A stretch of 64,000 nt of DNA from a virus. How positions within the stretch are numbered: position 1 is the first letter of the stretch; each line of letters opens with the position of its first letter. The stretch is from IMG/VR virus record IMGVR_UViG_3300046463_000548, positions 32,001 to 96,000 of that record; one strand, given 5' to 3'. Below the pieces are notes generated by a model that saw nothing but the letters and a program-made list of their open reading frames with translations, did not search any database and was not told the origin of the DNA. Position numbers and translations under genes: made by a program. Below, piece by piece: positions 5,604 through 50,950 of this stretch.

Positions 5604-6739
5604 TTGCTCATCTCCTTGATGAGCGTGTACGCCTCAGCCGACAGCAGATCGGTTGCCGGAACTTGAAAGCTCATGGCTTCGGCCGCAATCTTGGTGATGC
5701 GTGAGTTGACCAGCGCGAGCGTTGACAGAGTCGGCTGGAACTCCTTGACCGCAGCGCTCAGTTTCTTGTTCGACTCGTTCCACCACACCTTGCGATGTTT
5801 CTCACCCTTCAGGACCTTGACGTTCAACAGGAGCTGAGCGCCCCACGTCACTTTCTTCATGAACTGGAAGGGATCGGACACGTCCATCAACGCGCGGTGA
5901 GCGGGTCCGAATTGCCCTGCGTACAGCGCGATGAGGAAATCGACGGCCAGCTTGTCGTCACTTGATTCCAACGACGACAGAACGTCACCGAGCGCTTCGA
6001 TAGACAGAAGGGCGGGCTTCTTGCCTTCCACGCCGTCGTAGTACTGCTGCAGGCCCTGGATCATGTTCGCGAGCGTACGCATAGAACTTTCCGACGCACG
6101 AGCTACCTGACGGAGAAGATCGCGATCTTCGTCCAACAGATACGTCAGCTTCTCGCCCTTTGCGACGCGGATCGCATACTTCAGCATGTCGTCTTCTGAC
6201 GGTGCCTGAAGGTGAAAGACCGTGCAGCGTGAGAGCAGGGCGCGGCCATGATTCGATGAGTTGAATTTCTCAGGCTCCGACGAGCCGAAAATCCACGTCG
6301 TGTGCGAACTGGGCTCTTCGACCGGCTTCAGCAGACCCTGAGCAGCCGTTGCGTTCGACATGAACTGCTGCGCTTCGTCCACGAGAATGAAACGGCGCTT
6401 GGAACCCATCGGCTTGAATTTCGACACACGCTCCAGATCGCGTACGTCCTCGATTGAGCGCTGAGTTGCAGCGTTCAGTTCCTTGTAGTCCTGCTGCTCT
6501 GCAACCGGCTTTTCATTCACAGCAGCCGCCAGACAGCGGGCGAGTGTTGTCTTGCCCGCTGAGAACGGACCGAAGATCGCAATAGCGTTCGGAATCTTGC
6601 CGGTGTTGACCATGCCGCGCATCCGCGTAACGGCTGCTTCCTGACCGATCACCCGATCTAGTGTCTGCGGCCGGTACTTGCGGTGAAGCGCGTTTTCTTC
6701 AGGGTCGGGAACTGCTGCTGCAGGTTTCTTGGTTGCCAT
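5600..6739 (-). CDS. Clamp-loader AAA+ ATPase, DNA polymerase III gamma/tau (DnaX)-like
   Basis: KYRPQTLDRVIGQE, Walker A GPFSAGKTT, Walker B ILVDEAQ, SRC motif. Confidence 0.9.
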   Translation of the reverse strand: MATKKPAAAVPDPEENALHRKYRPQTLDRVIGQEAAVTRMRGMVNTGKIPNAIAIFGPFSAGKTTLARCLAAAVNEKPVAEQQDYKELNAATQRSIEDVRDLERVSKFKPMGSKRRFILVDEAQQFMSNATAAQGLLKPVEEPSSHTTWIFGSSEPEKFNSSNHGRALLSRCTVFHLQAPSEDDMLKYAIRVAKGEKLTYLLDEDRDLLRQVARASESSMRTLANMIQGLQQYYDGVEGKKPALLSIEALGDVLSSLESSDDKLAVDFLIALYAGQFGPAHRALMDVSDPFQFMKKVTWGAQLLLNVKVLKGEKHRKVWWNESNKKLSAAVKEFQPTLSTLALVNSRITKIAAEAMSFQVPATDLLSAEAYTLIKEMSK

Positions 6740-12192: not shown

Positions 12193-14607
12193 TTGCTCGT
12201 TCAAATCACGAACGCGGGCGCAGCTTTGCTCGCAGCAAACTCAGGACCGATTGAACTGTCAACGTTCAAGCTGGGTTCTGCATACGGGTATATCCCGGAA
12301 TCAACAGACACGGATATTCACGGTACGCTCGTCAATACCGGTGCCCCTTCATCGTTCCAGGTGATTAACGCGAATGTCTTCAAATATTCCGTTTATCTGG
12401 ATTACGATCTTGGACCGTTTCAGTTTGGTGAGCTTGGACTCTTCACGACGGACGGTGTGCTGTTTGCGCTGGGTTCAAACTCGGTGCTCCTGAACAAGCA
12501 ACCCGAATCGGCGGGTGTGTTTTCGGGTAACTCGATTCGTCTCGATATCTATCTGTCGATTGTGGGTCAGAATTACGCGATGTGGTTGGACTATGCATCG
12601 TCATCCAACAATTTTCAGATGGCAGTCTTGCAATCAGTGGACAGCCTGCCGCCACCGCAGAGCGCAACGCCAAACGCCTACATCATCACGGGCGCGTCTT
12701 CGAGTCAGTCATCGTTTATGGCGTACACGTCGCAGACGGGACTCTGGAATTTCGACTGCTATCAGTACGCTAATCAGGCGGCTGCGACGGTCACGGCATT
12801 CACTCCCAATTCGATCACGATTTCGCAATCTCAGTATGTACCGGGAATGTCCCCAGCGTATCCGGGTGCGACGATCATCGAGTTTTCGAGCGGTGCGCTG
12901 TACGGGATTTGTCGCTACGTAGCGAACGTGACGTTGAGCGGCGGTAACGCAGTGCTCACGTTCGATACCCCGCTGATGCTGACACCGAAAGTAGGGGACA
13001 CGGTACTAGCGTTCGGGCGTCAGGCGCTGAGCACCACAATCCCTAACCTTCCGATTGCAACAACGTCATCGCTTGGTGCCGTGGTTGTTGGGGATACGCT
13101 GACGGTCACTTCAGGAGGTCTGCTGAACGTTAAGCCTACCTCTTATCCAGTGCTGTCGGTGAACGGTATGACGGGTGACGTTGTGCTGCAAGCCACCGAC
13201 ATTTCGGGCTTGGCGACTGTCGCAACGACCGGTTTGTATTCATCGCTTATCGGGACCCCGGCTCCGTACGCGTTGCCGGTCGCGACATCGTCAACGCTCG
13301 GAGGTGTGAAGGCTCCTTCAGATGGCAACCTGACGATTGGCCCCACCGGGATCATCGATCTTGGGTTCTCGCCCGTCAAGACTGTGAACGGCGGGTCTCC
13401 GGACGCGGCCGGAAATGTGGCGGTCGTGTTACCCGCTCCCGTGGGACTCGTTAACCCAACGGCCATTGATGCAGGCACCGACTTCAACACACTGAAAACG
13501 TGCGGCTTGTACTTCGGTCTGGATGCGAACGCTGCATCGTTTGTGAATGCGCCTTCGACAGCGGCGGGAGGCACGCTGGACATCGAGCCGTTCACAACAT
13601 CCGCAACTGGCGGTGACGTGATTCAGCGTTACCAGATGTCCAATGCGCTGTTTTTCCGGCGCTACACGCAAGCGTCAAACACGTGGTCAACCTGGACTCA
13701 GGTGTCAACGAGTTCTGCGCTTCCGATTGCGTCAGCTTCGACACTGGGTGGTGTCATGGTTGGGGCAGGACTGTCTGTTACAGGGGCGGGTGTGCTCTCG
13801 GCAAATGTTAAGAGCATCAACGGACAAACAGGAATCGTGGTGTTGGACGCGAGTTCAGTCGGTGCTCTTCCTTCAGATGTTGTGAACATTCCGGGCGGAG
13901 TGCCCTCGCTCGATATCAATACCGGGACTTCAAACCCCGATACCGACGCATACACGTATGGCCGGTTGCCGTTCTATCAGAACACCTTGGGCGACTGGTT
14001 CAATGCAGGGAAGTGGGATGCGTCAGCGAACCACGTGATCCAGTCACACACGGGCAACACGACAGCGGACACGAACACGTCACTGGTTTCCGGTGGACTG
14101 CAGACGATTGACATATCGTACAACGGCAAGGGTGTTACGGGTCTTTCCAATCCAGACTACGAGGCGGTCAACGCTGAGGGCATGGTCTATGAGGTGAGCG
14201 TCGCTGGAACCACAGCGCTGGATGGAATTAGCACGTGGAATGTGGGCGATTTGGCGGTGTGTATAAACGGCGCGTGGACTCGGATTCAGTCGGGCGCGGC
14301 TGCAAATTCGCTGACATCGAATAGCAGTTGGTATCGCACGAACCCGGACGGAACCTTGGAGATTGGTGGTCACCATGTAATGACGGCGGGTAGTACGACG
14401 ACGACTATAACGCTGCCTGTCACTATCGGTACCTATCTCAGCGGCTTGGTCACAGATATCGGCTCGGCCTGCTTCTCTGGAGGAATTGCGCCACTCAGTT
14501 CGACGCAAATCACGCTTTACGCACCTGCGTACTGGCTGGATAACACAGGGACTGCCGTTGCCCGTGGCGACTTCGATATGCAATGGCGCATCCTGGCTAA
14601 ACCTTAA
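12193..14607 (+). CDS. Tail fibre protein B
   Basis: TTG start after AGGGG; same N-terminal anchor as fibre A; LGGV and SVNG repeats; pyocin-knob-like and C-terminal PDGTLEIGG segments. Confidence 0.85.
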   Translation: MLVQITNAGAALLAANSGPIELSTFKLGSAYGYIPESTDTDIHGTLVNTGAPSSFQVINANVFKYSVYLDYDLGPFQFGELGLFTTDGVLFALGSNSVLLNKQPESAGVFSGNSIRLDIYLSIVGQNYAMWLDYASSSNNFQMAVLQSVDSLPPPQSATPNAYIITGASSSQSSFMAYTSQTGLWNFDCYQYANQAAATVTAFTPNSITISQSQYVPGMSPAYPGATIIEFSSGALYGICRYVANVTLSGGNAVLTFDTPLMLTPKVGDTVLAFGRQALSTTIPNLPIATTSSLGAVVVGDTLTVTSGGLLNVKPTSYPVLSVNGMTGDVVLQATDISGLATVATTGLYSSLIGTPAPYALPVATSSTLGGVKAPSDGNLTIGPTGIIDLGFSPVKTVNGGSPDAAGNVAVVLPAPVGLVNPTAIDAGTDFNTLKTCGLYFGLDANAASFVNAPSTAAGGTLDIEPFTTSATGGDVIQRYQMSNALFFRRYTQASNTWSTWTQVSTSSALPIASASTLGGVMVGAGLSVTGAGVLSANVKSINGQTGIVVLDASSVGALPSDVVNIPGGVPSLDINTGTSNPDTDAYTYGRLPFYQNTLGDWFNAGKWDASANHVIQSHTGNTTADTNTSLVSGGLQTIDISYNGKGVTGLSNPDYEAVNAEGMVYEVSVAGTTALDGISTWNVGDLAVCINGAWTRIQSGAAANSLTSNSSWYRTNPDGTLEIGGHHVMTAGSTTTTITLPVTIGTYLSGLVTDIGSACFSGGIAPLSSTQITLYAPAYWLDNTGTAVARGDFDMQWRILAKP

Positions 14608-14625
14608 TTCAAAACGGGGATTGAG

Positions 14626-14994
14626 ATGAGCAGACTGAAGTTGATAGCGCTGTGGTTTCTGGTCACGCTGTTCATGCCACTGTTCAGTGTTGTCATGCTG
14701 ATCCAAGCGGTAGTCGGATCGCATAGCAGAGCCAAAAATATGGCGTTAGCTCAAGACGAATGTGGAAACTCGATGTTCGGGGGACCTTCAACACAGACGA
14801 TGTCCTCGCGAGTTGGGGACGGTCTGATAGAAGGTAAAAGATGGGCCAAGATCATCGCTCCTGTTATCGATTTTTTATTCGGAGCCGGACATTGTTTGTC
14901 GAACGTCGATCTTGCGGCCGGTCTACTGACTGAGGCACAGGTGTCGGAAGTAGATGCAGCAGATAAAGAGCAGGGACTCCCCGCTCAATACTAA
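14626..14994 (+). CDS. Membrane-anchored hypothetical protein following the tail fibre
   Basis: Hydrophobic N-terminus; QDECGN...QTMSSRVG...IDFLFGAGHC. Confidence 0.65.
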   Translation: MSRLKLIALWFLVTLFMPLFSVVMLIQAVVGSHSRAKNMALAQDECGNSMFGGPSTQTMSSRVGDGLIEGKRWAKIIAPVIDFLFGAGHCLSNVDLAAGLLTEAQVSEVDAADKEQGLPAQY

Positions 14995-22322: not shown

Positions 22323-24542
22323 ATGACCCTCAAGTACATGCAAGGATTCGAGACGATAGTCGATGATTCCGATCTTCGCGCTCAAGGTTGGGCACCCAAT
22401 CCGGCCAAGGCTTCGGCACGCAACGTACTAACGATTCCCTCGGTTAGCGGAGTATCCGGCTTCAGCTTGCGGCCTATGGGACCTTACAACAACCCCCTTT
22501 CAAGTACGCTATGGGGGTCGGCTTCAGCTAATGACTTTGGCTATTTCAATACGGGCATCACTGTTAATCAGGCGTGGCTCGCAGGAGGCGTGACGTTTGG
22601 ATTTGGCATCAAGTTCAACAGCGGCACGCAGGCAAACTACGGAGCGGGATCAACACTAAACAGTAACCAGGCGTGCTTTGACGGCACACGATACTGGGCG
22701 CTACGCCGTATAGGTAGTTCGACCAATGTCGCTTTTTCGACCGACCTGGTTAACTGGACAGTAGCGCAGAATCAGCCGCCCATTAGTATGGACAGCACCA
22801 CTACCCTAGCGTACATGGGCGGCGGTGTGGTAGCCGTTACAGGCACGGGAGCCGCGAGTACCACTAGCCAAGTGGTTTACTACATTTCGAATCCTACAGG
22901 ATCGTGGTCTACAGTTACGCTAAGAGGTTCTCTGGGTAGTGCAGTGGTTACGGGATGCGCTGGACAGACAGGCAACGCCACCTACCCGCATGTAGTTAGC
23001 ATTGCTTCGGCTGCTGCAGGAACTCTTGGGTCCGTGTTTGTAGGCTCGCTAGGTGGTGCAATGTCCAGCGTCGTTACATTTACTACAACTATCTCTGCGC
23101 AGGCAACCGCGCGAATACGCGTATGCGGTACGATTGTTGTGGCGGCATCTACTAGTCTTCTTGCATCAGCAGACAACACGAGTGGGTCCTTCAATACGGC
23201 AGGTGCATGGACTACGTGTACTCCGTCAAGTTTCAATGGTTATGTGAATGATGTAGCCTACCATCCGACTTCGAATCAATGGATCATCGTCACATCTGCT
23301 GGTATCTACACCATACCAAACAGTGGGGGAAGTGCGGGTACACCTGCGGTACTGCCCTCTGCACCGGCAGCTACTGTTCGGTACTCCACGGTAGGTATGC
23401 TCAATGTGCATCTGGTTGGGACTACATTGATTGCCACCGGCCAGCAAGGTCACATTGTGATCTCGGCTGACGGAGGTAACACGTGGACAGAAAGTGGCGG
23501 TCATCTTTTGCCTGTCGGTACTTCAGGCATTGACTGGCGCACTACTATCTATGATGGTTCACGCTATGTGCTGTTCTCAGACACAACCAGCGGCGTTATA
23601 GCCACGACACCTGATCTGCAGACAAACTATATAGCTCAGTACGCTCAAGAGCCTGCCGAGGTTACTCAAGCTACAGGTAGTACTTTGCTGGGGACTGGAT
23701 TGATTCCGGGAAATGTGCCTTCCGCTACTACGGGGCAGTGGGCAATGGCCAATAGTAGCAATCCGGCGATGCTTCAAATCGGTCCAGTGTCTAGTGGGAG
23801 CCGCAACTACGTCCTTGACGCGTTCAACACGGGGCTTCCGCTGCTCACAGGCACGATCCCAACGACGACGCAGCTATATCATTACATAGAAATTAAGATG
23901 ATAAAGGCTGCGGCCACTGCTAACACCTTCACCGTAGCATTGTATATAGACGGGTTGTTGGCCGGGACATCGGCTTCTATTGCCTATGCGGGTGCGTCGG
24001 ACACAACGGCATTGCTGATTATGGTGTTCCAACGCAACGGCGTGTTTACGGCCATTGATGATATATACGTCACGCTAGACGATGGAGTGGCAGGTACGCT
24101 GCAGGGGCCGCTGGGTATCGTCAACATCGTAGCCCAACGGGGTGAAACCGATACGCAAGCGCAGTGGGTTAAGACGGGCTCGGCAGCATCGAATTCGTTG
24201 TCGGTGAACCAACCAGCGCTGTCCTCGTCTTCTGCTAACTACGTCACGTCGGCTAATGCGGGCGACAAAGACATTTATGGGTCAATCGATGCACTGCCAG
24301 CGGGTTACTCACCCAAGGCTATTCAGAACGAAGCGTACTTCACCAAGACCTCAGGAACTGCGCCGGTCGTTAATATCGGCTCGCTCAGCGGCTCTACCGA
24401 GAGTGACAGTGCCAACGCAACGATCAGCGGTGCGGGTACTACGTACGTGTCGCAGATTCTGGAGAAAGATCCGAACGGGAACGTTGCTTTGACTCCCGCT
24501 GCCGTGAACGCGATGAAGTTCGTGCTGAATCACATAAGCTAA
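22323..24542 (+). CDS. Virion protein with an inserted beta-propeller (BNR/Asp-box), putative receptor-binding protein
   Basis: STDLVNW and SADGGNTW Asp-boxes inside a frame resembling the 21164 protein. Confidence 0.7.
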   Translation: MTLKYMQGFETIVDDSDLRAQGWAPNPAKASARNVLTIPSVSGVSGFSLRPMGPYNNPLSSTLWGSASANDFGYFNTGITVNQAWLAGGVTFGFGIKFNSGTQANYGAGSTLNSNQACFDGTRYWALRRIGSSTNVAFSTDLVNWTVAQNQPPISMDSTTTLAYMGGGVVAVTGTGAASTTSQVVYYISNPTGSWSTVTLRGSLGSAVVTGCAGQTGNATYPHVVSIASAAAGTLGSVFVGSLGGAMSSVVTFTTTISAQATARIRVCGTIVVAASTSLLASADNTSGSFNTAGAWTTCTPSSFNGYVNDVAYHPTSNQWIIVTSAGIYTIPNSGGSAGTPAVLPSAPAATVRYSTVGMLNVHLVGTTLIATGQQGHIVISADGGNTWTESGGHLLPVGTSGIDWRTTIYDGSRYVLFSDTTSGVIATTPDLQTNYIAQYAQEPAEVTQATGSTLLGTGLIPGNVPSATTGQWAMANSSNPAMLQIGPVSSGSRNYVLDAFNTGLPLLTGTIPTTTQLYHYIEIKMIKAAATANTFTVALYIDGLLAGTSASIAYAGASDTTALLIMVFQRNGVFTAIDDIYVTLDDGVAGTLQGPLGIVNIVAQRGETDTQAQWVKTGSAASNSLSVNQPALSSSSANYVTSANAGDKDIYGSIDALPAGYSPKAIQNEAYFTKTSGTAPVVNIGSLSGSTESDSANATISGAGTTYVSQILEKDPNGNVALTPAAVNAMKFVLNHIS

Positions 24543-26447: not shown

Positions 26448-26476
26448 TTGACGAAATGTGCGGACGCTGCTAAATT
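26448..26476 (+). promoter_or_regulatory. sigma70-type promoter
   Basis: TTGACG-17 bp-TAAATT at the head of the accessory region. Confidence 0.6.
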
Positions 26477-42276: not shown

Positions 42277-42786
42277 CTAGTTGGTCGCTTCCGCTTTCAA
42301 CTGAGGGCCGAACGACAGGGGCAGCGGGTCGGCTGCTAGCTCGGTGTTTTTCTGCTCGACCCACAAGCGTAGCTGCGCGGTGTTAGGTGCATCGTAGGAC
42401 AGCGTGAGATGCGCACGGTAGTCCGGGAACGAGTGCTGCAACCCTTCACCCAGCAACTCGGAGTGCAGCCGCTGTAGGTCCGGAGAATCGAGATAGGCAA
42501 CGAGCACCGGCCGCTGCTTGTGATCGAGCCACACCTGCAGGCTAGTCACCGATCCTTTGCACACGCGATCTGCTGGCGGCTTTACACCGAACGGAAGATC
42601 ATGCTTGTGGTAAAGCACAGTCACGTGAAAATCCGTGGAGTGGTTCGGCTTGAACGGCGCACCCGACAGAAAGTTGCCAAGACTCAGGATCGACTGCTCA
42701 TCCGGATCGGCCCACACGTAGAGTCCGGAGCCCGAATCAGCCTCCCGGATTTGATCGTAGAGAATCTGCGCTTCTATCTTGAACAT
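42277..42786 (-). CDS. acb1: Acb1 / T4 gp57B-like 2H phosphoesterase (anti-CBASS nuclease)
   Basis: GLYV N-terminal motif, HVTVLY and HLTLSY HxT pair, LQVW...VLVAYLDS..L..LH...G..HSFPDY..H pattern as recalled for T4 57B. Confidence 0.8.
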   Translation of the reverse strand: MFKIEAQILYDQIREADSGSGLYVWADPDEQSILSLGNFLSGAPFKPNHSTDFHVTVLYHKHDLPFGVKPPADRVCKGSVTSLQVWLDHKQRPVLVAYLDSPDLQRLHSELLGEGLQHSFPDYRAHLTLSYDAPNTAQLRLWVEQKNTELAADPLPLSFGPQLKAEATN

Positions 42787-42898: not shown

Positions 42899-43465
42899 TC
42901 AACTCCATTTGATCGACATGATTTCATCGATGTCCTTTGCTGAAGCCAACTTGGCCTTTAGCTTTGAACGCGTCTGGAAAGCCTCCCACCCTTGTGCGGT
43001 TATGGCTGCGTTTAAGCCCTGAATATCTTTCAGTGTGAAGGGAACCGGGGTGTTATCTGACGATATCCAGTAGAACCCGCTGGGAGTTTCGCCTAGGATG
43101 GAATACGATTGCGCTGCTCTTGCAACAGATGCCGCACTTTCTGCATCAGCCTCAAACTTCTTGGTCACACCCCCCTCTGTAGTGAAGGAGATGTCGCTGA
43201 CCACAGCGGAGTTGTAAGAAGCAGTTATCGTCCTCTTCTGTGCTCCGCGTGCCTGCGACAACAGGAATTCAGGCGAGGGCGGAGATAGCTTGTCGTCATT
43301 TACTGTCCAGCCGCCTTGCACCGCGAGACAGGCTTGCCATTCGTCATGGCTCAGGGCAATCGCTTCTACGCCTTCTGGCACTGGACTGTCAGTGCTATCG
43401 TAGAAGGCAACGATAACCCCATTCTTATCATATGCTGCGTACTTCTGACCCATGTCGGTCTCCAT
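42899..43465 (-). CDS. Tail fibre assembly protein (DUF4376-like)
   Basis: Follows the fibre gene; FYD...P...WQACL; WISSDNTPVPFT. Confidence 0.75.
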   Translation of the reverse strand: METDMGQKYAAYDKNGVIVAFYDSTDSPVPEGVEAIALSHDEWQACLAVQGGWTVNDDKLSPPSPEFLLSQARGAQKRTITASYNSAVVSDISFTTEGGVTKKFEADAESAASVARAAQSYSILGETPSGFYWISSDNTPVPFTLKDIQGLNAAITAQGWEAFQTRSKLKAKLASAKDIDEIMSIKWS

Positions 43466-45084
43466 TAATAGCCTATTGCGAGCCAGTTAGCACCTTTCTG
43501 ATCGGCTCCGATAACAGCGGACGAATTTGTGAAACTCACAACTCCGCTGTAGTTGTTGTTGGCAACGTTTCCGGGGCCAAACAAAGAGACGCTGTTTAAT
43601 ACCCTCAAGCAAGCGTTAGGGAACGTAATAGGGAAATTAACGGTGGGGAACGTTTGATTGCCGGGGGTGGTGCCCCACTGGAGAATTAGTCCATCTGGTA
43701 AAACGTCATACCCGTTCCCTGCGAACAGCGTGCCGCTACCTAGTTTTCCGCGCATTGAAAACGGGAACCAGTCCGTCCAGTTAGCACCGTTGTTGTAGCC
43801 TTGTCGCCAGTACGGGGGATACCCACCGACACCGTGACTGTCGCCACCGCCTGTATTCCACGGATACGCGATCTGCGTGATGTCTGAGCCGTGCGCGCCG
43901 GACACACCGTCACCGATGTTGTGAACCCAGATGTTGCAGTTCCAGTTGATCGGCATGTTGGCAGGTAGGTTGCCCGAAGTCGCAATGTACAGCCCAGATG
44001 CAAGCGCGTTGCTGTTCAGATCGTCCGCACTGGTCAGTTGGCGTCCGCTGCTCGTTGACGGGCTCTGAAGCATGCCGACCGCTTGAATCACGCCCGGTTG
44101 CGGCATGTACAGGCCGGAACCACCGTACGCGAGACCAGGTGTGCCCACAGTGGCGAGAGGCGCGCTCGGAGGCGGGTCGATGATCTGCGAGTAGTAAATC
44201 TTCAGTCCCGATTGCGTGGACGAATACAGACGGCAGTGGCTACCAACAGCCGGTGAATTCAGCAGCGGGATATTGCTGTACGTGCCATCGTTCGTCACGT
44301 TCAGATTGAACCGGTAGTTAGCGCCTGACGTAACGATGCTCGACACTGACCGGAAAAATCCGTCCGGTGTTTCGAGGACCCACTGACGATTAGCAGATGC
44401 GAGCGCAGCAGGCGTGAACAGGGCCGGTGAAAACTCAACCCATGTCGTGGACGAGTTCAGGACCGGTGCCGCGTTGTTTACCTGATAGTAGGTCGTGCCC
44501 AGTGTCCACGCTGAGTCACTCGAATTTTGCAGGAGCGACGAATCACCTGAGGGGCTTAGCTCGCGCACAACGTACAGCGGAACATCGGGGTTAGCCGATA
44601 CACCGGGCGGGTACACGTCGGACCACTGGTAGATGTCCAAGACCGCAGGAGGTGCACTGACTGTGTCGATCTGGAACACGGCGACCGACTGCTCCAACTT
44701 CAAAAGGCAGTTGAACGTGTAGCTCGTTACGACGTTCGTGCCCAAGCTCGAATACTTCGTTTGCGGCTCGTCAAACACACCCTTTGCAAACATCACACCG
44801 CCATCCAGATACAGCGCGACTTCACCGAACTGGAAAGGACCGGCAGCGACCGGAATCTGACAGATGATGTTGAGCGTGTTGTTGCCGATGTATTCGTAAC
44901 TCGTTGGCACACCTGTGAAAAGCAGGTTGCCATTCAGACCGGCATCAGTGCGTTGCGGATCGTAGCCATAGGCCGATCCAACTTCAAAGCTGGTGATGTG
45001 AACGTAGGGACCTTCAGGCATCGCGGTTGACGCGACAGCAAGCCCCGCATTGGTGATCACCAGAAGTGGTGTGCCGTTACTCAT
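43465..45084 (-). CDS. Tail fibre protein E
   Basis: Same N-terminal anchor as fibres A and B; C-terminal LPDGLILQWG...FPITFPNAC...WLAIGY. Confidence 0.88.
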   Translation of the reverse strand: MSNGTPLLVITNAGLAVASTAMPEGPYVHITSFEVGSAYGYDPQRTDAGLNGNLLFTGVPTSYEYIGNNTLNIICQIPVAAGPFQFGEVALYLDGGVMFAKGVFDEPQTKYSSLGTNVVTSYTFNCLLKLEQSVAVFQIDTVSAPPAVLDIYQWSDVYPPGVSANPDVPLYVVRELSPSGDSSLLQNSSDSAWTLGTTYYQVNNAAPVLNSSTTWVEFSPALFTPAALASANRQWVLETPDGFFRSVSSIVTSGANYRFNLNVTNDGTYSNIPLLNSPAVGSHCRLYSSTQSGLKIYYSQIIDPPPSAPLATVGTPGLAYGGSGLYMPQPGVIQAVGMLQSPSTSSGRQLTSADDLNSNALASGLYIATSGNLPANMPINWNCNIWVHNIGDGVSGAHGSDITQIAYPWNTGGGDSHGVGGYPPYWRQGYNNGANWTDWFPFSMRGKLGSGTLFAGNGYDVLPDGLILQWGTTPGNQTFPTVNFPITFPNACLRVLNSVSLFGPGNVANNNYSGVVSFTNSSAVIGADQKGANWLAIGY

Positions 45085-45139
45085 TTACATACCTCTGTTA
45101 ATGATTGAAGTGCGGGCTCTCGCATTAGTGGTTTACCCG

Positions 45140-45152
45140 CAAAATGTTGATA
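45140..45152 (-). promoter_or_regulatory. IHF-binding site
   Basis: TATCAACATTTTG matches the consensus WATCAANNNNTTR. Confidence 0.55.
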
Positions 45153-45480
45153 AAATCCATTATGTCAAGTTCTGCTGCAACGCACCAAATGAATGAAATC
45201 AAATACATAGGTCAAGTAGCTGACCCTTTAATGAGTAAAAAGCGACAAAACAACACTTATTGCGTGCCCAGGCAACCAATATGCAATTGTTTTTCTGTGC
45301 AGCTATTGACAGTTTGTGCAACCCGTGCAGGTGCGAGTCATCGATGTCGAATCGAGCGGAAAAAGTTATCCACACGGCACTCAAGCCGCGTAGTTATCCA
45401 CGTGCAGGGGAGTTGTTCACAATGCGTGAGGCTTATCCAACGCTTCGCGACTTATGCACAGCGTTGGAGCGTTATGCGTA
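45140..45480. other. oriC/datA-like locus: IHF site, AT-rich tract and DnaA-box array
   Basis: TTATCCACA 45366, TTATCCACG 45394, TTGTTCACA 45413, TTATCCAAC 45433, TTATGCACA 45452, TTATGCGTA 45472; all in the same orientation. Confidence 0.7.
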
Positions 45481-46593
45481 CTGCTGCAGGATGTCGGAGA
45501 GGCGTTCCATGTTCGTGTGCAGCCGGAAGTCTTGCCGCTCGCGTGTCGTGTGCACGTAGCCAGCCGGACGTGTCGAACCATCGAAGAACACCAGGTACAG
45601 ATACTTGTAGCCCTTGTGCAGGGCCCCGCGAGCCTTGCGCGTAATCTCGTCTGTCACGCTTCCCCTATCGGCCGGGGGCTCGCTTGTGAGGTCGATCACC
45701 AGACCGCGCTTTTCGATCCACAGATCAGGCGCGTAGTCGCGTCCTTCCGAGCGATACGTTGGGCCGGATGTATCGATAGATTGCGCAGCGATTCCCTCAG
45801 TCAGGAGCCACGGAATCGCCACCTTTTGGGTGCCAACGACCAACCACGAAGCGCCGCCCGAATCGAGCCGTTGTGGGGCGTTTTTGAAGGCCGCACGCAG
45901 CGCTTCGACGGGTTCCAGAGGCGCGACCGGCAGCGCCTTTTTCTTGATACGCACGGGCACCGGCAGATCGTCTTCAACTTCGATCTTCAGGTTGTGTGTT
46001 GAGTCCCGGAGCTTTTCCCGCACCTCCCGCCGTTGGCTCGAACTGGTGCGTTTGCCGTTGCTGCGTTCTAGCTCGTTGCGCCGGTTTGATTCCACGCGTT
46101 TGGCTATCGCTTCCGGACGTGATCGCGGATCGACGGATGTCCCGTTGGAGCGTTCAAGCTCGCGATCCATGATCATTTCTTTGTACGTCTTCGAGCGACG
46201 TAGCGCGCGGCTTCGGTTTCTGAGTTCCGGCCGCTGCGCTACGTTCGTGTACTTGCCGCCTGATCGTTCTAGCTCGTTGCGTCTGCGCGTCTCGATCTTC
46301 GCCGGGTCTTTCCACGAGCACGCAGCAGAGCAGTAGCTGATGTACTTCAGTGCGCGTTTATCGAACCGGACCGTTTCGTTGCAGCCCGGAGTCTTGCACG
46401 TTGATCGCGCGTTAGGAAACAGGTGCGTGTAGAACTCAAGCTGATTGAACCGTGAGCCCAATGCGTCCTGCAATTCACTAAACAGTTCCGCGTCTATACG
46501 GTTGCGCAGCCATGCACTGAATCCACCTGGTCCGCTAGGTTTGGATAGCTGCAGCAGCCCCCTCACATCCTTTATAACAAGTTTCTGGTCCAT
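45472..46593 (-). CDS. Homing-endonuclease-like DNA-binding protein with a degenerate PD-(D/E)XK domain
   Basis: Zn finger CKTPGC...CSAAC, three ELERSxG basic repeats, YAPDLWI...VIDLTS. Confidence 0.6.
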   Translation of the reverse strand: MDQKLVIKDVRGLLQLSKPSGPGGFSAWLRNRIDAELFSELQDALGSRFNQLEFYTHLFPNARSTCKTPGCNETVRFDKRALKYISYCSAACSWKDPAKIETRRRNELERSGGKYTNVAQRPELRNRSRALRRSKTYKEMIMDRELERSNGTSVDPRSRPEAIAKRVESNRRNELERSNGKRTSSSQRREVREKLRDSTHNLKIEVEDDLPVPVRIKKKALPVAPLEPVEALRAAFKNAPQRLDSGGASWLVVGTQKVAIPWLLTEGIAAQSIDTSGPTYRSEGRDYAPDLWIEKRGLVIDLTSEPPADRGSVTDEITRKARGALHKGYKYLYLVFFDGSTRPAGYVHTTRERQDFRLHTNMERLSDILQQYA

Positions 46594-46725: not shown

Positions 46726-47844
46726 TCAGAACAGACGGCTAGACTGTATGTTCAGTGCACGTTGCTGCTGATCCGATTGTAGACCGAACACGTAGTTGCG
46801 GAACCCATAGTTGATATCGAACATCACAGGGAACGACGGTTGACTGACCTTAGAGCCGGTTACCGTCAGTTGCTCTGTATCAGCCCATGACAGAGATATG
46901 ATCCCTGATTGGGTAGTTGAGTTGTTGGATGAGGGTTGCAGCGTCCCCTGTGTTTGGTTGTTACCAGCGAATCCTGAGAGCATCTTGATGAAGTACTGTC
47001 TCTGTGTAAGCTGTGCAGTAGTCGGTGAGTTAGCTGGGGTCATAAGCTTGCCGTTGATGAGGAACTGCGATCCATACTGAACAAACGACGTGCCCATTGA
47101 TCCGCTTTGTGTTCCCATGAATCCCCAGTAGGCTGACGTATCTGTCATGTTTACTGTTGAACCTAGCAGCTTGACGTAGCCATGGCTCGATGAATCCATG
47201 TTCCTCACTACATCTGCATAGATCGAATACAGAGCGATTGACGGAGTGGCTGGTGCTTGGGGGAGATTCAGGGCCACCCCTTCAAACGTGATAGACCCGC
47301 CGTACCTGTTGATTCCGTATAGAACCCATTGCGCGTTTGTTTGGCCTGTTGAGAACGTGATAGTCGGTCTCTGGAGGTCTTGCATATACTGTGATTTACA
47401 CTGTGTTCCGGAGACCAGCGTGTCGAAATCCCCGTAGTTGGAATCTCCGTAGAACGTGAATACGAGGTTAGCTCCGGTGTAGATCGCAACGTCTGACTGA
47501 GGGAACGCAAAGGTCTGGGAGGCGAGTAGCGCGATATACACAGAGCCCGTTATCTGCTGATTCGGAAACAGCGATTGGGCTGCTTGTACGGCTTTGGCTA
47601 TAGTCTGGAACGGCTGTGCTTTGGTACCCGGGTTCGTGTCTGAACCTGAGTTGGACACGTAGAAAGCGGTGAACGAACCGAAGTAGGAGTGGCTCCCAAC
47701 GTACACGCCATCTGCATTAGATTGAACGAGGTTACCGGGTTGCTGTGAAATCGGCACCTGAGTCGGGGGGATGGTTGCTGACGGGTCCATCGGCCGCGTT
47801 ACCTGAAGGGCTGAATCGTAAAACGAAGGAAGCTGGTATGTCAT
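46726..47844 (-). CDS. Baseplate-associated spike/fibre protein (pectin-lyase/DUF1565-like N-terminal motif)
   Basis: FYVSNSGSDTNPGTKAQPFQTIAKAV. Confidence 0.65.
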   Translation of the reverse strand: MTYQLPSFYDSALQVTRPMDPSATIPPTQVPISQQPGNLVQSNADGVYVGSHSYFGSFTAFYVSNSGSDTNPGTKAQPFQTIAKAVQAAQSLFPNQQITGSVYIALLASQTFAFPQSDVAIYTGANLVFTFYGDSNYGDFDTLVSGTQCKSQYMQDLQRPTITFSTGQTNAQWVLYGINRYGGSITFEGVALNLPQAPATPSIALYSIYADVVRNMDSSSHGYVKLLGSTVNMTDTSAYWGFMGTQSGSMGTSFVQYGSQFLINGKLMTPANSPTTAQLTQRQYFIKMLSGFAGNNQTQGTLQPSSNNSTTQSGIISLSWADTEQLTVTGSKVSQPSFPVMFDINYGFRNYVFGLQSDQQQRALNIQSSRLF

Positions 47845-47848
47845 GTTT

Positions 47849-49093
47849 TCACCAATAAGGGACGTACTGATTAGCTGAAAGCTGCGTGAACCCTTTGGGG
47901 TTGCACAGAAGGTTCTGGCGTTGGCCTACGATCTGGGCCGGAATCAGGTTTAGGCCCTGCGTGCGCTCGACCGGTACCGACGTATAGAACGGGATACGCG
48001 CGTCTGATCGGGTGGAACCTGGTACGGGCATCCACCCAACGGGGCCCAGAAGCACTGAATAGCCGGATGTCTGACCGTTCGTTGATTCGCCGCCCATTAG
48101 CGTTGAGGGAACCACTCCGCTTGTTGAACCCTGTCTGTCGGTCGCTGCGTATGCCGGTATGGAGTTGCCGTTCGTGTCTTTAATCCACGCAGTAGGCTGC
48201 CCCAGCATATAAACGCCGCTGTAGTTCGTGTTTGCCGGTGTTTGGGTCAGCGCACCCATCGGTATTTGAGGCGACACATCGAACGTGGGGGGAGCATCTG
48301 ACCCATACGAAAACAGATTGGACATCACGATTTCGTTGTTTGCCCACAGACCTATGGCCACGACCTCCGCATCAGTCCGTTCTCTCGTTTCGTCGTCCGT
48401 CACCCACATATCGAACGATATATCGACCGAATGCAACACGAGGTTGTAGTTGGCAATCTCGTAGAAGAACGAAATCAGCGTGGAGATATCCAAGCCCTGT
48501 AATCCGCCTTGCGCGACAATCGCCACGTGCGTTGTCGGGTACCACGTGCCTCCTTCCCACAGAGGTGTACCGATAGCCGCGTCTCCGTCCTTGAAAAAGT
48601 GCACGTAATCCTGCGTCCACAGACGTGACACCTGAAGCGATGAGCTTAGGCAGTAGTTGATGAAGTTGATAAACGACTGCGTGCCCTTGCCGAACCAGTA
48701 AGCACCGACCCAGCGCGCAATCGCCTGGTACGAGTCGTTGGATATGATCCCCGCGTTCATCAGCTTCATGCCAAGCATATTCACCTGTTTGACGAGAATC
48801 TGACGTTCGGGCTGTGACCACGCCTCAAACGGGATTAACTGCGCTTCTTCGACATACTGTGTTTCCAATGCAGGATTCGATACCCACATGTTTCGCAGAT
48901 CACCTAGAATCTCGGTCGGGATATCGACTGAAGCTTCGAACACATCGTCAATCGCATCCATAAATTCAACGAAATATGGGTTCTGCGCCATGTACGGCGG
49001 AAGAAGGATTGAACGCGGGGTCCGGTACCCCAAACGCTTGTTCTCAACCGGATTCGTGGATGGAACATCCAGCGTGTACTGATATTGAGTCAT
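47849..49093 (-). CDS. Baseplate wedge protein (P2 gpI / T4 gp7-like)
   Basis: Follows the gp6-like gene; LLPPY...KGTQSFINF. Confidence 0.65.
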   Translation of the reverse strand: MTQYQYTLDVPSTNPVENKRLGYRTPRSILLPPYMAQNPYFVEFMDAIDDVFEASVDIPTEILGDLRNMWVSNPALETQYVEEAQLIPFEAWSQPERQILVKQVNMLGMKLMNAGIISNDSYQAIARWVGAYWFGKGTQSFINFINYCLSSSLQVSRLWTQDYVHFFKDGDAAIGTPLWEGGTWYPTTHVAIVAQGGLQGLDISTLISFFYEIANYNLVLHSVDISFDMWVTDDETRERTDAEVVAIGLWANNEIVMSNLFSYGSDAPPTFDVSPQIPMGALTQTPANTNYSGVYMLGQPTAWIKDTNGNSIPAYAATDRQGSTSGVVPSTLMGGESTNGQTSGYSVLLGPVGWMPVPGSTRSDARIPFYTSVPVERTQGLNLIPAQIVGQRQNLLCNPKGFTQLSANQYVPYW

Positions 49094-49102
49094 GGATCAT
49101 CC

Positions 49103-50950
49103 TTAACCTATCGAGCTACGTGACGGCTGGCCTGAATCGATCTGCTGCTGACGCTCTGAATAGAACACGTTGATAACCGGAGGCTGAGCCAGCGTGTTGT
49201 ACTGGATAGGCGTGTTAGCTATCGTTGTGGGCGTCGGTCCCGAAGGCGTCAGTGTCCCGTTGTCCGTGAACGTGTAGGTAGCTGCGGATGTTGCCGCAAC
49301 CGTCGTCAGAATCCCCAGACTTGCGCCCGGTGCACGTCCCCACACTGTGTACGACGCAGCGTCCATCACTGCGGGCCATGTCAGCGTGATTCCGTAGTCG
49401 GCGGTTGTCGAAACGACCTGAGGGAATACCCAGTTCGTTGGGGTTCCCGACTGCCCATTCGTCAGCGTCGTTGAAATCGCATAGCCGTACACCAGTTCAC
49501 CAAGCGATCCGCCACCTGGAACGAGCGTGTACGTGATTTGCGGGCTTGTTGGAGCCGTCACGATCATCGGCCCTGTCGGGGACAGCACCTCTACGTACGA
49601 AATCTGTCCGGGGCTCGATTTGAATGCTGCGCGCTCAAGATCGGATTCATAGAAGTTCGTCCGAAGCAGGCCGGGGCGTGGAGCAAACAGCTTTATGATC
49701 GCGTCCGTCACCTGCGTCTGCACCTGTTGCGGAAGCGCAGAGTTGAAGATGTAGACGTTCATCTGCACGGTGCGCGGGACCGCAATGGGCTCCTGCCACA
49801 GGAAATAGCATGAGTACATGCTCACAGCCTGACAGTAGTCCGTGAACTCCTTGATCTGCGCTTGTGACCATGGGCTGGTGGTGAGTCCCGACACGCGGAT
49901 CACGTTCATCCAGCGGTAGTCGCTCGGATTGATTTCGCGCTGCGCTTGTGTCACCGCATCAACGATTCCGGGAAACGTTGCGACGGTCGCGAGATACTGC
50001 GATTTTGTGACTGCTGACTGATACGTGCCGAACCCGCCTGATGCCACGTTTTTGTACGCGAGAGTCGGATTCTGGTTCGATCCGCCTTGCGGATTGTCAG
50101 TCATCACGCCATAGATCAACGGGAATCCGGTGACCGTGACTTGTGTGCCCGATGTCGTCAGCGAGTTGCCGTTTGCACCATGAGTCACCGGGTACGTGAT
50201 AACGACCGTGTCCGAGACTTGCGGAATCGAGCCGAACGCTTGCAACGTGCCGAACTGCGCAGACGTTCCGCCCAGGTTGCCGAACTGCAGGAGCAAACGC
50301 CCATCGCTTGTCGTAATGTCCGCGTATCCAGGAAGTCCATCGAAGTTCCACAGACCGCCATACGATTTCGGGATAATCGTGCTGTTGATCTGAACAGTCA
50401 CGTCCTGATCAGAGACCACAAACGCATCCTGCGAGCCCACAAACGTCTGGCGCTCGGTGCCCAGGCCGTTCATCTGGTAAGAGTACAGTTGCCCCTCATA
50501 CAGCGTCACAGCCAGCGGAATATTCGCTTTGAAGGTCAGCGCGTCACGGTTGAAGAAGTAGTTACCAGCGGCTGAGAATTGCGTGTAGGGCGGAAGCGTG
50601 ACATCGACCGGACTCGTGATCGACGCGGGAGCCTGAGCGGGCAGACAGCGAGCAATACGCAGGCCCTGCATTTGCGTGATTGACAGGATCGCTGAATCTG
50701 ACTGTGCGGTTTCAGCGAATGCGTCCTCCGCTTCGCGGATCACACGGCCTTGTGCAAATGTGCCGACAGTCGAAACCAGTTCGATTAGCGTCTGCGAGGT
50801 CTGCGTCGTGAGGTTACCGACCCAAACAGGTTTCTGTTGCAAATAGGCTTGAAACTGCTGCACGAATTGATCGACATCGGCAGTCAGGTCGCTCAGTACA
50901 AGCGTTACTGCTGGCGTCGATGTGGTGCTTGAGGTAGCGGGCGTAGACAT
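49103..50950 (-). CDS. Baseplate wedge subunit (T4 gp6 / P2 gpJ-like)
   Basis: EDAFAETAQ...SI, THGANGN, GGS...AVTKSQY; follows the gp25-like gene. Confidence 0.8.
   Translation of the reverse strand: MSTPATSSTTSTPAVTLVLSDLTADVDQFVQQFQAYLQQKPVWVGNLTTQTSQTLIELVSTVGTFAQGRVIREAEDAFAETAQSDSAILSITQMQGLRIARCLPAQAPASITSPVDVTLPPYTQFSAAGNYFFNRDALTFKANIPLAVTLYEGQLYSYQMNGLGTERQTFVGSQDAFVVSDQDVTVQINSTIIPKSYGGLWNFDGLPGYADITTSDGRLLLQFGNLGGTSAQFGTLQAFGSIPQVSDTVVITYPVTHGANGNSLTTSGTQVTVTGFPLIYGVMTDNPQGGSNQNPTLAYKNVASGGFGTYQSAVTKSQYLATVATFPGIVDAVTQAQREINPSDYRWMNVIRVSGLTTSPWSQAQIKEFTDYCQAVSMYSCYFLWQEPIAVPRTVQMNVYIFNSALPQQVQTQVTDAIIKLFAPRPGLLRTNFYESDLERAAFKSSPGQISYVEVLSPTGPMIVTAPTSPQITYTLVPGGGSLGELVYGYAISTTLTNGQSGTPTNWVFPQVVSTTADYGITLTWPAVMDAASYTVWGRAPGASLGILTTVAATSAATYTFTDNGTLTPSGPTPTTIANTPIQYNTLAQPPVINVFYSERQQQIDSGQPSRSSIG

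Follow-up and report, generated by a model that had tools for sequence, protein, structure and literature searches.

A 387-bp non-coding gap in the tail operon of a giant, uncultivated phage carries five DnaA-box-like 9-mers, all on the plus strand, with start-to-start distances of 28, 19, 20 and 19 bp. Their sequence and conservation indicate that they probably form a selected docking array for host DnaA. The stretch analyzed here (64,000 nucleotides, referred to as the window) corresponds to bases 32001-96000 of a 153,706-bp IMG/VR virus contig with an estimated completeness of 63%, whose source is rhizosphere metagenomes. DNA and protein matches placed the phage nearest to jumbo myophages of Burkholderiales (phiRSL1, BCSR5, Motura and BcepSauron), and a clamp-loader-like gene is present, in agreement with the original prediction of a large myophage with its own clamp loader. 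An intergenic gap of about 390 bp inside a phage tail operon had likewise been predicted correctly: tail genes flank the gap, and all genes around it are encoded on the minus strand (Table 1).

The 9-mer TTATCCACA at 45366, predicted as the one perfect box, is the sole exact copy in the whole contig. Box 1, at the other end of the array, lies 8 nt from the stop codon of the adjacent 373-aa gene P0001. With up to two mismatches allowed and a span of 100 bp, the densest same-strand cluster of the contig consists of these five 9-mers, which fall within 95 bp. To assess chance, 300 first-order Markov simulations of the contig were scored for the largest same-strand cluster within 100 bp. The maximum was two boxes in 113 runs, three in 183 and four in 4, and five were reached in 0 of the 300 runs. 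Tandem Repeats Finder detected no tandem repeat, and a blastn comparison of the gap with the whole contig revealed no further copy. A sixth 9-mer, TTATGCGTA at 45472..45480 (plus strand), was discarded. It has three mismatches, coincides with the last codons and the stop of P0001 and has no counterpart box in the relative L009. Of the six same-orientation boxes originally proposed, the five in the gap exceed chance and are conserved, and the proposed 19-20 bp register holds for the starts at 45394, 45413, 45433 and 45452, without the one at 45472.

Table 1. Coordinates of the gap, its boxes and neighbouring features, and of loci used for comparison. Positions refer to the window unless stated otherwise.
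Feature	Position	Strand	Remarks
Baseplate wedge gene	49103-50950	-	
Tail protein gene	47849-49093	-	
372-aa protein gene	46726-47844	-	
373-aa gene P0001	45472-46593	-	Stop adjoins gap
Non-coding gap	45085-45471		387 bp, from P0001 stop (45472) to tail-fibre start (45084)
DnaA box 1	45452..45460	+	TTATGCACA; fits TTWTNCACA; 9/9 in L009
DnaA-like box 2	45433..45441	+	TTATCCAAC; 2 mismatches, weakest of five; L009 TTGTGCACA, 7/9
DnaA-like box 3	45413..45421	+	TTGTTCACA; 2 mismatches, G at W position; 9/9 in L009
DnaA-like box 4	45394..45402	+	TTATCCACG; 1 mismatch; L009 TTATTCACA, 7/9 identical
DnaA box 5	45366..45374	+	TTATCCACA; exact; nearest AT tract; identical in L009
Terminator-like hairpin and T run	45370..45393	- (operon strand)	Long spacer plus box 5
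Early-promoter box TTGAC(G/A)-N3-TGTGC	45306..45319	+	Between AT-rich element and array; 13/14 identical in L009
Conserved AT-rich element	45140..45280	-	About 140 bp; 89% identical in L009, 74% in L010
23-bp motif TTGACATAATGG-N3-TTATCAAC	45146..45168	-	Most conserved part of AT-rich element
IHF consensus WATCAANNNNTTR / TATCAACATTTTG	45140..45152	-	Exact; sole one in window
Tail-fibre gene	43465-45084	-	Phage_tail_fib N-terminal domain and Gp53-like_C; downstream of gap
DUF4376 protein gene, then Acb1-like gene	beyond tail fibre	-	
(t/c)aGTAAATA sites	54647, 16260, 8068, 7137, 4968	-	
(t/c)aGTAAATA sites	25997, 26491	+	
DnaB_C helicase (DnaB family)	contig 22403-22888	-	461-aa frame; early region, outside window
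ParB_N-like domain	contig 14575-14802	+	Sub-threshold; 348-aa frame; early region, outside window
Example phased array	L090 9080-9389		
Example phased array	L041 13125-13313		
Example phased array	L088 6904-7073		

Comparison with L009, whose neighbouring protein is 88% identical, provided a footprint of the array. The five boxes of L009 start at 6136, 6156, 6176, 6195 and 6224; read in the direction of the operon, they are spaced 20, 20, 19 and 29 bp apart, compared with 19, 20, 19 and 28 bp in the window. Between the two sequences, 41 of 45 box positions were identical (91%) versus 17 of 50 positions in the inter-box spacers. Four-fold degenerate sites of the adjacent gene were 57% identical, and the 46 bp beyond box 5 were 47% identical. 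Since the 9-mers are conserved while the spacers and the surrounding DNA drift, the boxes are under selection. In a strain from run X5, about 98.5% identical over the stretch, the array was intact and free of indels, with a G45402T exchange in box 4. The array is known in two lineages only, so that this footprint consists of one pairwise comparison and one near-identical strain; run X7 leaves 45212-45573 uncovered, and the runs comprise contigs only, without ends, strands or a depth profile. In summary, the cluster exceeds chance in number, is uniform in orientation and regular in phasing, and combines conserved boxes with free spacers. The spacers (45375-45451 in the window, 6145-6223 in L009), at 34% identity close to random, turned over faster than synonymous sites.

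Conservation of the boxes did not extend to the other relatives. The array is absent from L003-L007, L010 and L011, and no three-box array exists anywhere in the complete genome of BcepSauron (L006). A homologue of P0001 is missing from L003, L004, L005, L006 and L007; in the first three of these, the homologue of the 372-aa protein ends approx. 9-36 bp before the fibre gene. Where a gene of the P0001 family is present, the junction with the fibre gene occurs in four states, with gaps of 0, 236, 387 and 558 bp. The genes abut or overlap in L011-L013 and also in L137-L143, which carry DUF7487 homologues of 38-39% identity. The 236-bp gap of L010 contains the AT-rich element only, in opposite orientation, while the 387-bp and 558-bp gaps are those of the window and L009, respectively. 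By sequence comparison, the P0001 gene and the gap are both optional. Because the gap element is optional and is lacking in relatives, one of them represented by a complete genome, it is ruled out as the essential origin for this group of phages.

The product of P0001 had no match in Pfam or PHROG. It combines a zinc ribbon and three basic ELERSxG repeats with a C-terminus of the PD-(D/E)XK-like type, in which E-x-K reads D-L-T in P0001-P0004 and E-V-K in the distant homologues (DUF7487). Close homologues were found in metagenomes. Judged by these features, P0001 looks like a decayed gene of the homing-nuclease type that became fixed at one locus. Such a neighbour, together with a tail-fibre junction that is a hotspot with four different states, would suit a functionless passenger, namely a leftover piece of an origin from a bacterium or plasmid, or debris of a recombination hotspot, that travelled with a mobile 373-aa gene. 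We regard this as highly improbable, given that the boxes have outlasted both their spacers and the four-fold degenerate sites next door, and that no similar sequence occurs elsewhere in the contig.

Features of the boxes themselves point to DnaA as the likely binder. Among the ten boxes of the window and L009, the freely varying position is the N of TTWTNCACA, and the two flanking bases are mostly (C/G)T as in R4-like AGTTATCCACA. Box R4 of E. coli is a strong box with the same type of flank. The [C/G]T flank also agrees with that of 333 boxes from other phage arrays, which were identified by scanning IMG/VR for three copies of TGTGNANAA at 19-21 bp, a pattern that leaves two box positions free. 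Phased same-strand arrays were found in at least 118 other viral contigs (L019-L136). At the free positions, G and T predominated overwhelmingly, which amounts to the exact DnaA box, in contigs ranging from 19 to 70% GC. Recurrence of the exact box over this range argues for a universal host protein rather than many phage proteins. A DnaA DNA-binding domain (Bac_DnaA_C) is not encoded on the contig itself. Among the matches listed, arrays comprised 3 to more than 17 boxes (up to 17-25) with a spacing of 19-21 or 11-12 bp, and a dnaA signature was detected near none of the 118 loci, which sets them apart from mis-binned chromosomal origins. Thus, the suggestion that such a locus is unusual for a phage was not borne out. 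The literature search on DnaA-box sinks or arrays in phages returned only the T5 case discussed below and general DnaA reviews.

The other arrays occupy long non-coding regions. Seventy of them had enough flanking sequence to determine the gene context; 24 were found between divergent and only 2 between convergent genes, a ratio that places the arrays in promoter regions. They are often located beside terminase or lysis genes, and some occur in microvirus-like contigs (Phage_F, REP_ORF2-G2P). The array of the window resembles them in having same-strand TGTGGATAA(C/G)T boxes in non-coding DNA without dnaA. However, most of the others have more and better boxes and occupy long divergent control regions or sites next to terminase or lysis genes, whereas here five boxes of mixed strength reside in a co-directional late operon and are present or absent among close relatives. 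Bacterial genomes share the two-turn phased architecture, and dnaA lies within 8 kb in 10 of 80 sampled loci (L151-L230). Bacterial arrays of exact boxes were frequent in Chloroflexota (Anaerolineae), Competibacteraceae and Glycomyces.

Iteron origins of plasmids offer another comparison. In those of P1, F and pSC101, direct repeats recur at about 20 bp next to AT-rich DNA, together with DnaA boxes and an IHF site, and the whole iteron is conserved. In contrast, only the 9-bp cores are common to the repeats described here, P0001 matches no Rep family, no Rep gene accompanies the repeats, and homologues of the neighbouring gene occur without them. A related alternative is that the repeats are iterons for a phage protein, either the nuclease-dead 373-aa neighbour or a factor reading the TTGACG-N3-TGTGC boxes of this phage. 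The array abuts the 373-aa gene and includes a single perfect DnaA box; moreover, the boxes begin with TGTG, and the 14-bp phage box ends with TGTGC, one copy being located only 46 bp away (45 bp in L009) from box 5. Nevertheless, we consider a phage reader very unlikely. Homologues of the 373-aa protein are encoded at the same locus without any repeats, and conservation is restricted to a 9-bp core whose degeneracy is of the DnaA type and whose flank is of the R4 type. Other TGTGnAnAA sites of the contig are scattered single copies only, one of which overlaps an early-promoter box.

The second part of the gap is an AT-rich element. Its AT-rich tract, noted in the original prediction, is real and extreme: positions 45141-45240, with 33% GC, form the lowest 100-bp window of the contig (mean approx. 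55%), and the lowest 170-bp window is likewise located at this tract. In L010, the element is inverted relative to the genes and occurs without boxes, indicating that the AT-rich element and the array are separable modules. A search of the element against Rfam at a permissive threshold returned two sub-threshold snoRNA chance matches only, and RNA folding gave no structure signal (z = +0.56). Its bipartite pattern had no match among metagenome contigs.

Within the AT-rich element, the 23-bp motif recurs without any change in L009 and L010. It can be read as an extended -10-like TGnCATAAT, after which comes a DnaA*-like TTATCAACA (45145-45153), and is oriented toward the fibre gene in the window and L009. 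Twelve further exact matches were found at viral and metagenome loci (L014-L018, L144-L150), several of which are the same sequence in both collections. These loci are always intergenic and belong to unrelated phages, and the motif was found 0 times in 596 Gbp of bacterial genomes. Two other motif families place a near-consensus DnaA box beside TTATCAAC. The 23-bp motif is possibly a phage-specific promoter or operator, and is treated below as a putative promoter. An upstream partner, AAGTCnTTGATT, often precedes the motif by about 25 nt.

Other proposed elements of the gap fared less well. The exact IHF consensus is present and conserved in L009 and L010, but its occurrence matches chance expectation (1 found in the window vs 1.2 expected), and A45141G breaks it in strain X5. 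The near-match at 45197-45209 was rejected as a feature. The GGTCA-N6-TGACC palindrome exists at 45210-45225; one of its arms, however, is lost in both L009 and L010. None of the open reading frames of the gap (166, 99 and 61 aa) matched a protein family significantly; the best E value, 0.048, falls far short of the cut-off, and L010 does not keep the frame.

The locus had been likened to oriC and datA, and either a DnaA-dependent phage origin or plasmid maintenance had been proposed. Similar to E. coli oriC, it combines same-direction boxes of mixed affinity and helical phasing with an IHF consensus and nearby AT-rich DNA (PMC5742627). In oriC, however, the IBS is located between R1 and R5M, and strict DUE-R1 and R1-IBS spacings are required (PMC5742627). 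In the window, 213 bp separate the IHF consensus from the array, the AT tract is found on the other side relative to the box orientation, the spacing is two turns instead of 11 bp, and relatives do not conserve the element. At 55-225 bp from the array, the AT tract is situated on the 3' side with respect to the orientation of TGTGGATAA. In the oriC sequence of E. coli, the DUE lies on the 5' side of R1. No AT-rich DUE was found at a fixed spacing on the R1 side, and the intervening 46 bp were the poorly conserved segment beyond box 5. Cumulative GC skew showed neither a turn nor an extreme at the array; its extremes are located elsewhere. Inspection by eye revealed no DnaA-trio or 13-mer repeats beside the array. 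An integrase was not found within the available 63% of the genome, and the only partition-type signal was a sub-threshold ParB_N match. Taken together, the polymorphic IHF site outside the boxes, the position of the AT tract, the optional nature of the insert and the absence of a skew turn speak against an oriC layout, and the latter two findings as well as the missing integrase and the weak ParB_N signal against a main phage origin or plasmid maintenance.

An auxiliary origin is a less demanding version of this idea. The AT tract would be opened or marked by DnaA or by transcription, and the phage DnaB-family helicase would be loaded at a site that is not essential. T4 has several origins. 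In the window, the only DnaA array of the contig neighbours its lowest-GC 100 bp, and the inverted TTATCAACA faces the array across the AT tract, in an orientation like that of R1 and R4. The IHF consensus is kept in L009 and L010. Genes for a DnaB_C helicase and a clamp-loader-like protein are present, and a replication initiator was not recognised. Furthermore, the two-turn arrays beside dnaA represent a genuine oriC-type architecture in some bacteria, and the array could work like a DnaA-oligomerisation region. We nonetheless rate an auxiliary origin as rather unlikely. Relatives do without the array, the AT-rich element of L010 stands alone and inverted, and the layout, IHF polymorphism, absence of 13-mer or DnaA-trio-like repeats, drift next to box 5 and unturned GC skew described above all weigh against it. 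A more far-reaching version, in which the mobile cassette would be a portable, host-DnaA-triggered auxiliary initiation site that loads the phage DnaB-type helicase and spreads among jumbo phages beside a decayed homing-nuclease gene, appears quite improbable.

A DnaA sink had been proposed as well. Here, amplified boxes would titrate or inactivate DnaA and thereby prevent the host from starting further rounds of replication. The boxes are genuine and under selection, and some other phages have 10-25 perfect boxes, which looks titration-like. E. coli datA is also an intergenic set of same-direction DnaA boxes downstream of genes with an involvement of IHF (PMC5742627). In datA as in oriC, however, the IHF site is located between the DnaA boxes (PMC5742627), and no IHF consensus occurs inside the array of the window, so that the proposed datA layout was not confirmed. 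Just five boxes are present, one of them perfect and two fitting TTWTNCACA, and relatives manage without any. Mixed affinity and strict phasing are better explained by cooperative assembly than by maximal titration. Host takeover by a DnaA sink is therefore quite unlikely in our view.

Conserved host DnaA boxes in non-coding DNA of virulent phages with their own replication genes have a precedent in the injection-stop (iss) region of T5-like phages (bioRxiv 10.1101/866236, Davison). A role of these boxes in replication has been argued against, and the commonest variant, termed the DnaA* box, is TTATCAACA (bioRxiv 10.1101/866236), the same sequence as at 45145-45153. The T5 boxes differ in being paired at a distance of 3 bp and in lying inside inverted repeats that belong to the terminal repeat. 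In the window, five same-strand boxes are spaced by 19-28 bp, lack flanking inverted repeats and occupy an internal, optional position in a tail operon.

Our preferred, though tentative, reading is that of an optional cassette which joins DnaA docking to a promoter-like AT element and acts locally in cis. Local transcription control as the main output of the array is possible, albeit doubtful. According to this model, the gap would be a horizontally acquired, non-coding cassette of two separable modules, inserted into a gene pair that abuts or overlaps in those gapless relatives carrying the 373-aa gene. The first module, five same-strand 9-mers of mixed strength phased by two turns, would serve as a docking site for DnaA, the replication initiator of the host, which would probably bind as a cooperative oligomer whose formation depends on the DnaA level. 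The second, the 140-bp AT-rich element, would contribute a phage-specific, promoter-like TGACATAAT followed by TTATCAAC and pointing toward the tail fibre. Bound immediately behind the stop codon that ends the upstream gene, and perhaps forming a loop with the inverted TTATCAACA at the promoter, DnaA might act as a gate or insulator for transcription into and out of the cassette. Expression of the fibre gene would thereby be tied to the DnaA state of the host.

Cis-acting transcription control was ranked first because the cassette interrupts a once-coupled gene pair, because the promoter-like motif is joined to a DnaA*-like box, and because the boxes are phased and of mixed affinity, properties that would suit a level-sensitive switch. 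DnaA is an established transcription factor, including at pR/ori-lambda of phage lambda (PMC8203912), where it is described as stimulating transcription (Szalewska-Palasz et al. 1998, cited in PMC8203912). The shared feature would be the action of host DnaA, on phage DNA, upon a promoter of the phage; lambda differs in possessing an initiator and iterons of its own, and its boxes are unrelated in layout and number.

Several observations weaken the presumed transcriptional output of the cassette. A sigma-70 consensus scan of the region yielded 0 promoters, and the -10-like hexamer has a C at -12, which speaks against a promoter. A simple fibre promoter fits poorly, as the inverted motif of L010 points antisense into the upstream gene. 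Classical activation or repression is disfavoured by the distance of about 200 bp between array and motif, and L009 shows no clear conservation of the terminator-like hairpin. The transcription and auxiliary-origin readings are, in our analysis, not mutually exclusive. In lambda and T4, transcription activates origins.

Promoter-like sequences of the phage itself were also surveyed. The contig contains 17 copies of the 14-bp early-promoter box, most of them followed by TAnAAT; the copy at 45306 lacks a -10 element in either direction. The complete family reads TTGACG-N3-TGTGC-N8-TAnAAT, with window copies at 26448, 31785, 34350 and 45306 (plus strand). Three inverted copies of the box provide the other strand with a TTGCAC -35 element, with TAAAAT or TATAAT 16 nt further on. 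A second sequence, (t/c)aGTAAATA, occurs 35 times in the contig (approx. 13 expected), several times just upstream of gene starts, and is a candidate late promoter. As the operon strand carries no late-type GTAAATA from 51329 to the fibre gene, transcription of the operon probably must cross the array.

While host DnaA boxes on virulent T5-like phage DNA were already known, the present data add that helically phased DnaA-box arrays are widespread in uncultivated phages and that one of them is an optional insertion inside a late operon. Close relatives with no insert, with the AT-rich element alone or with both AT-rich element and array constitute a natural experiment. This junction series allows the effects of DnaA docking on transcription, initiation and host shut-off to be compared. 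If the array is a portable cis element, it would illustrate the way in which phages make a cell-cycle protein of the host part of their own programme. The tail-fibre module downstream of the gap ends with a gene for an Acb1-like (anti-CBASS) 2H-phosphoesterase (42277-42786, minus strand), whose position is kept in the relatives L009, L137 and L143.
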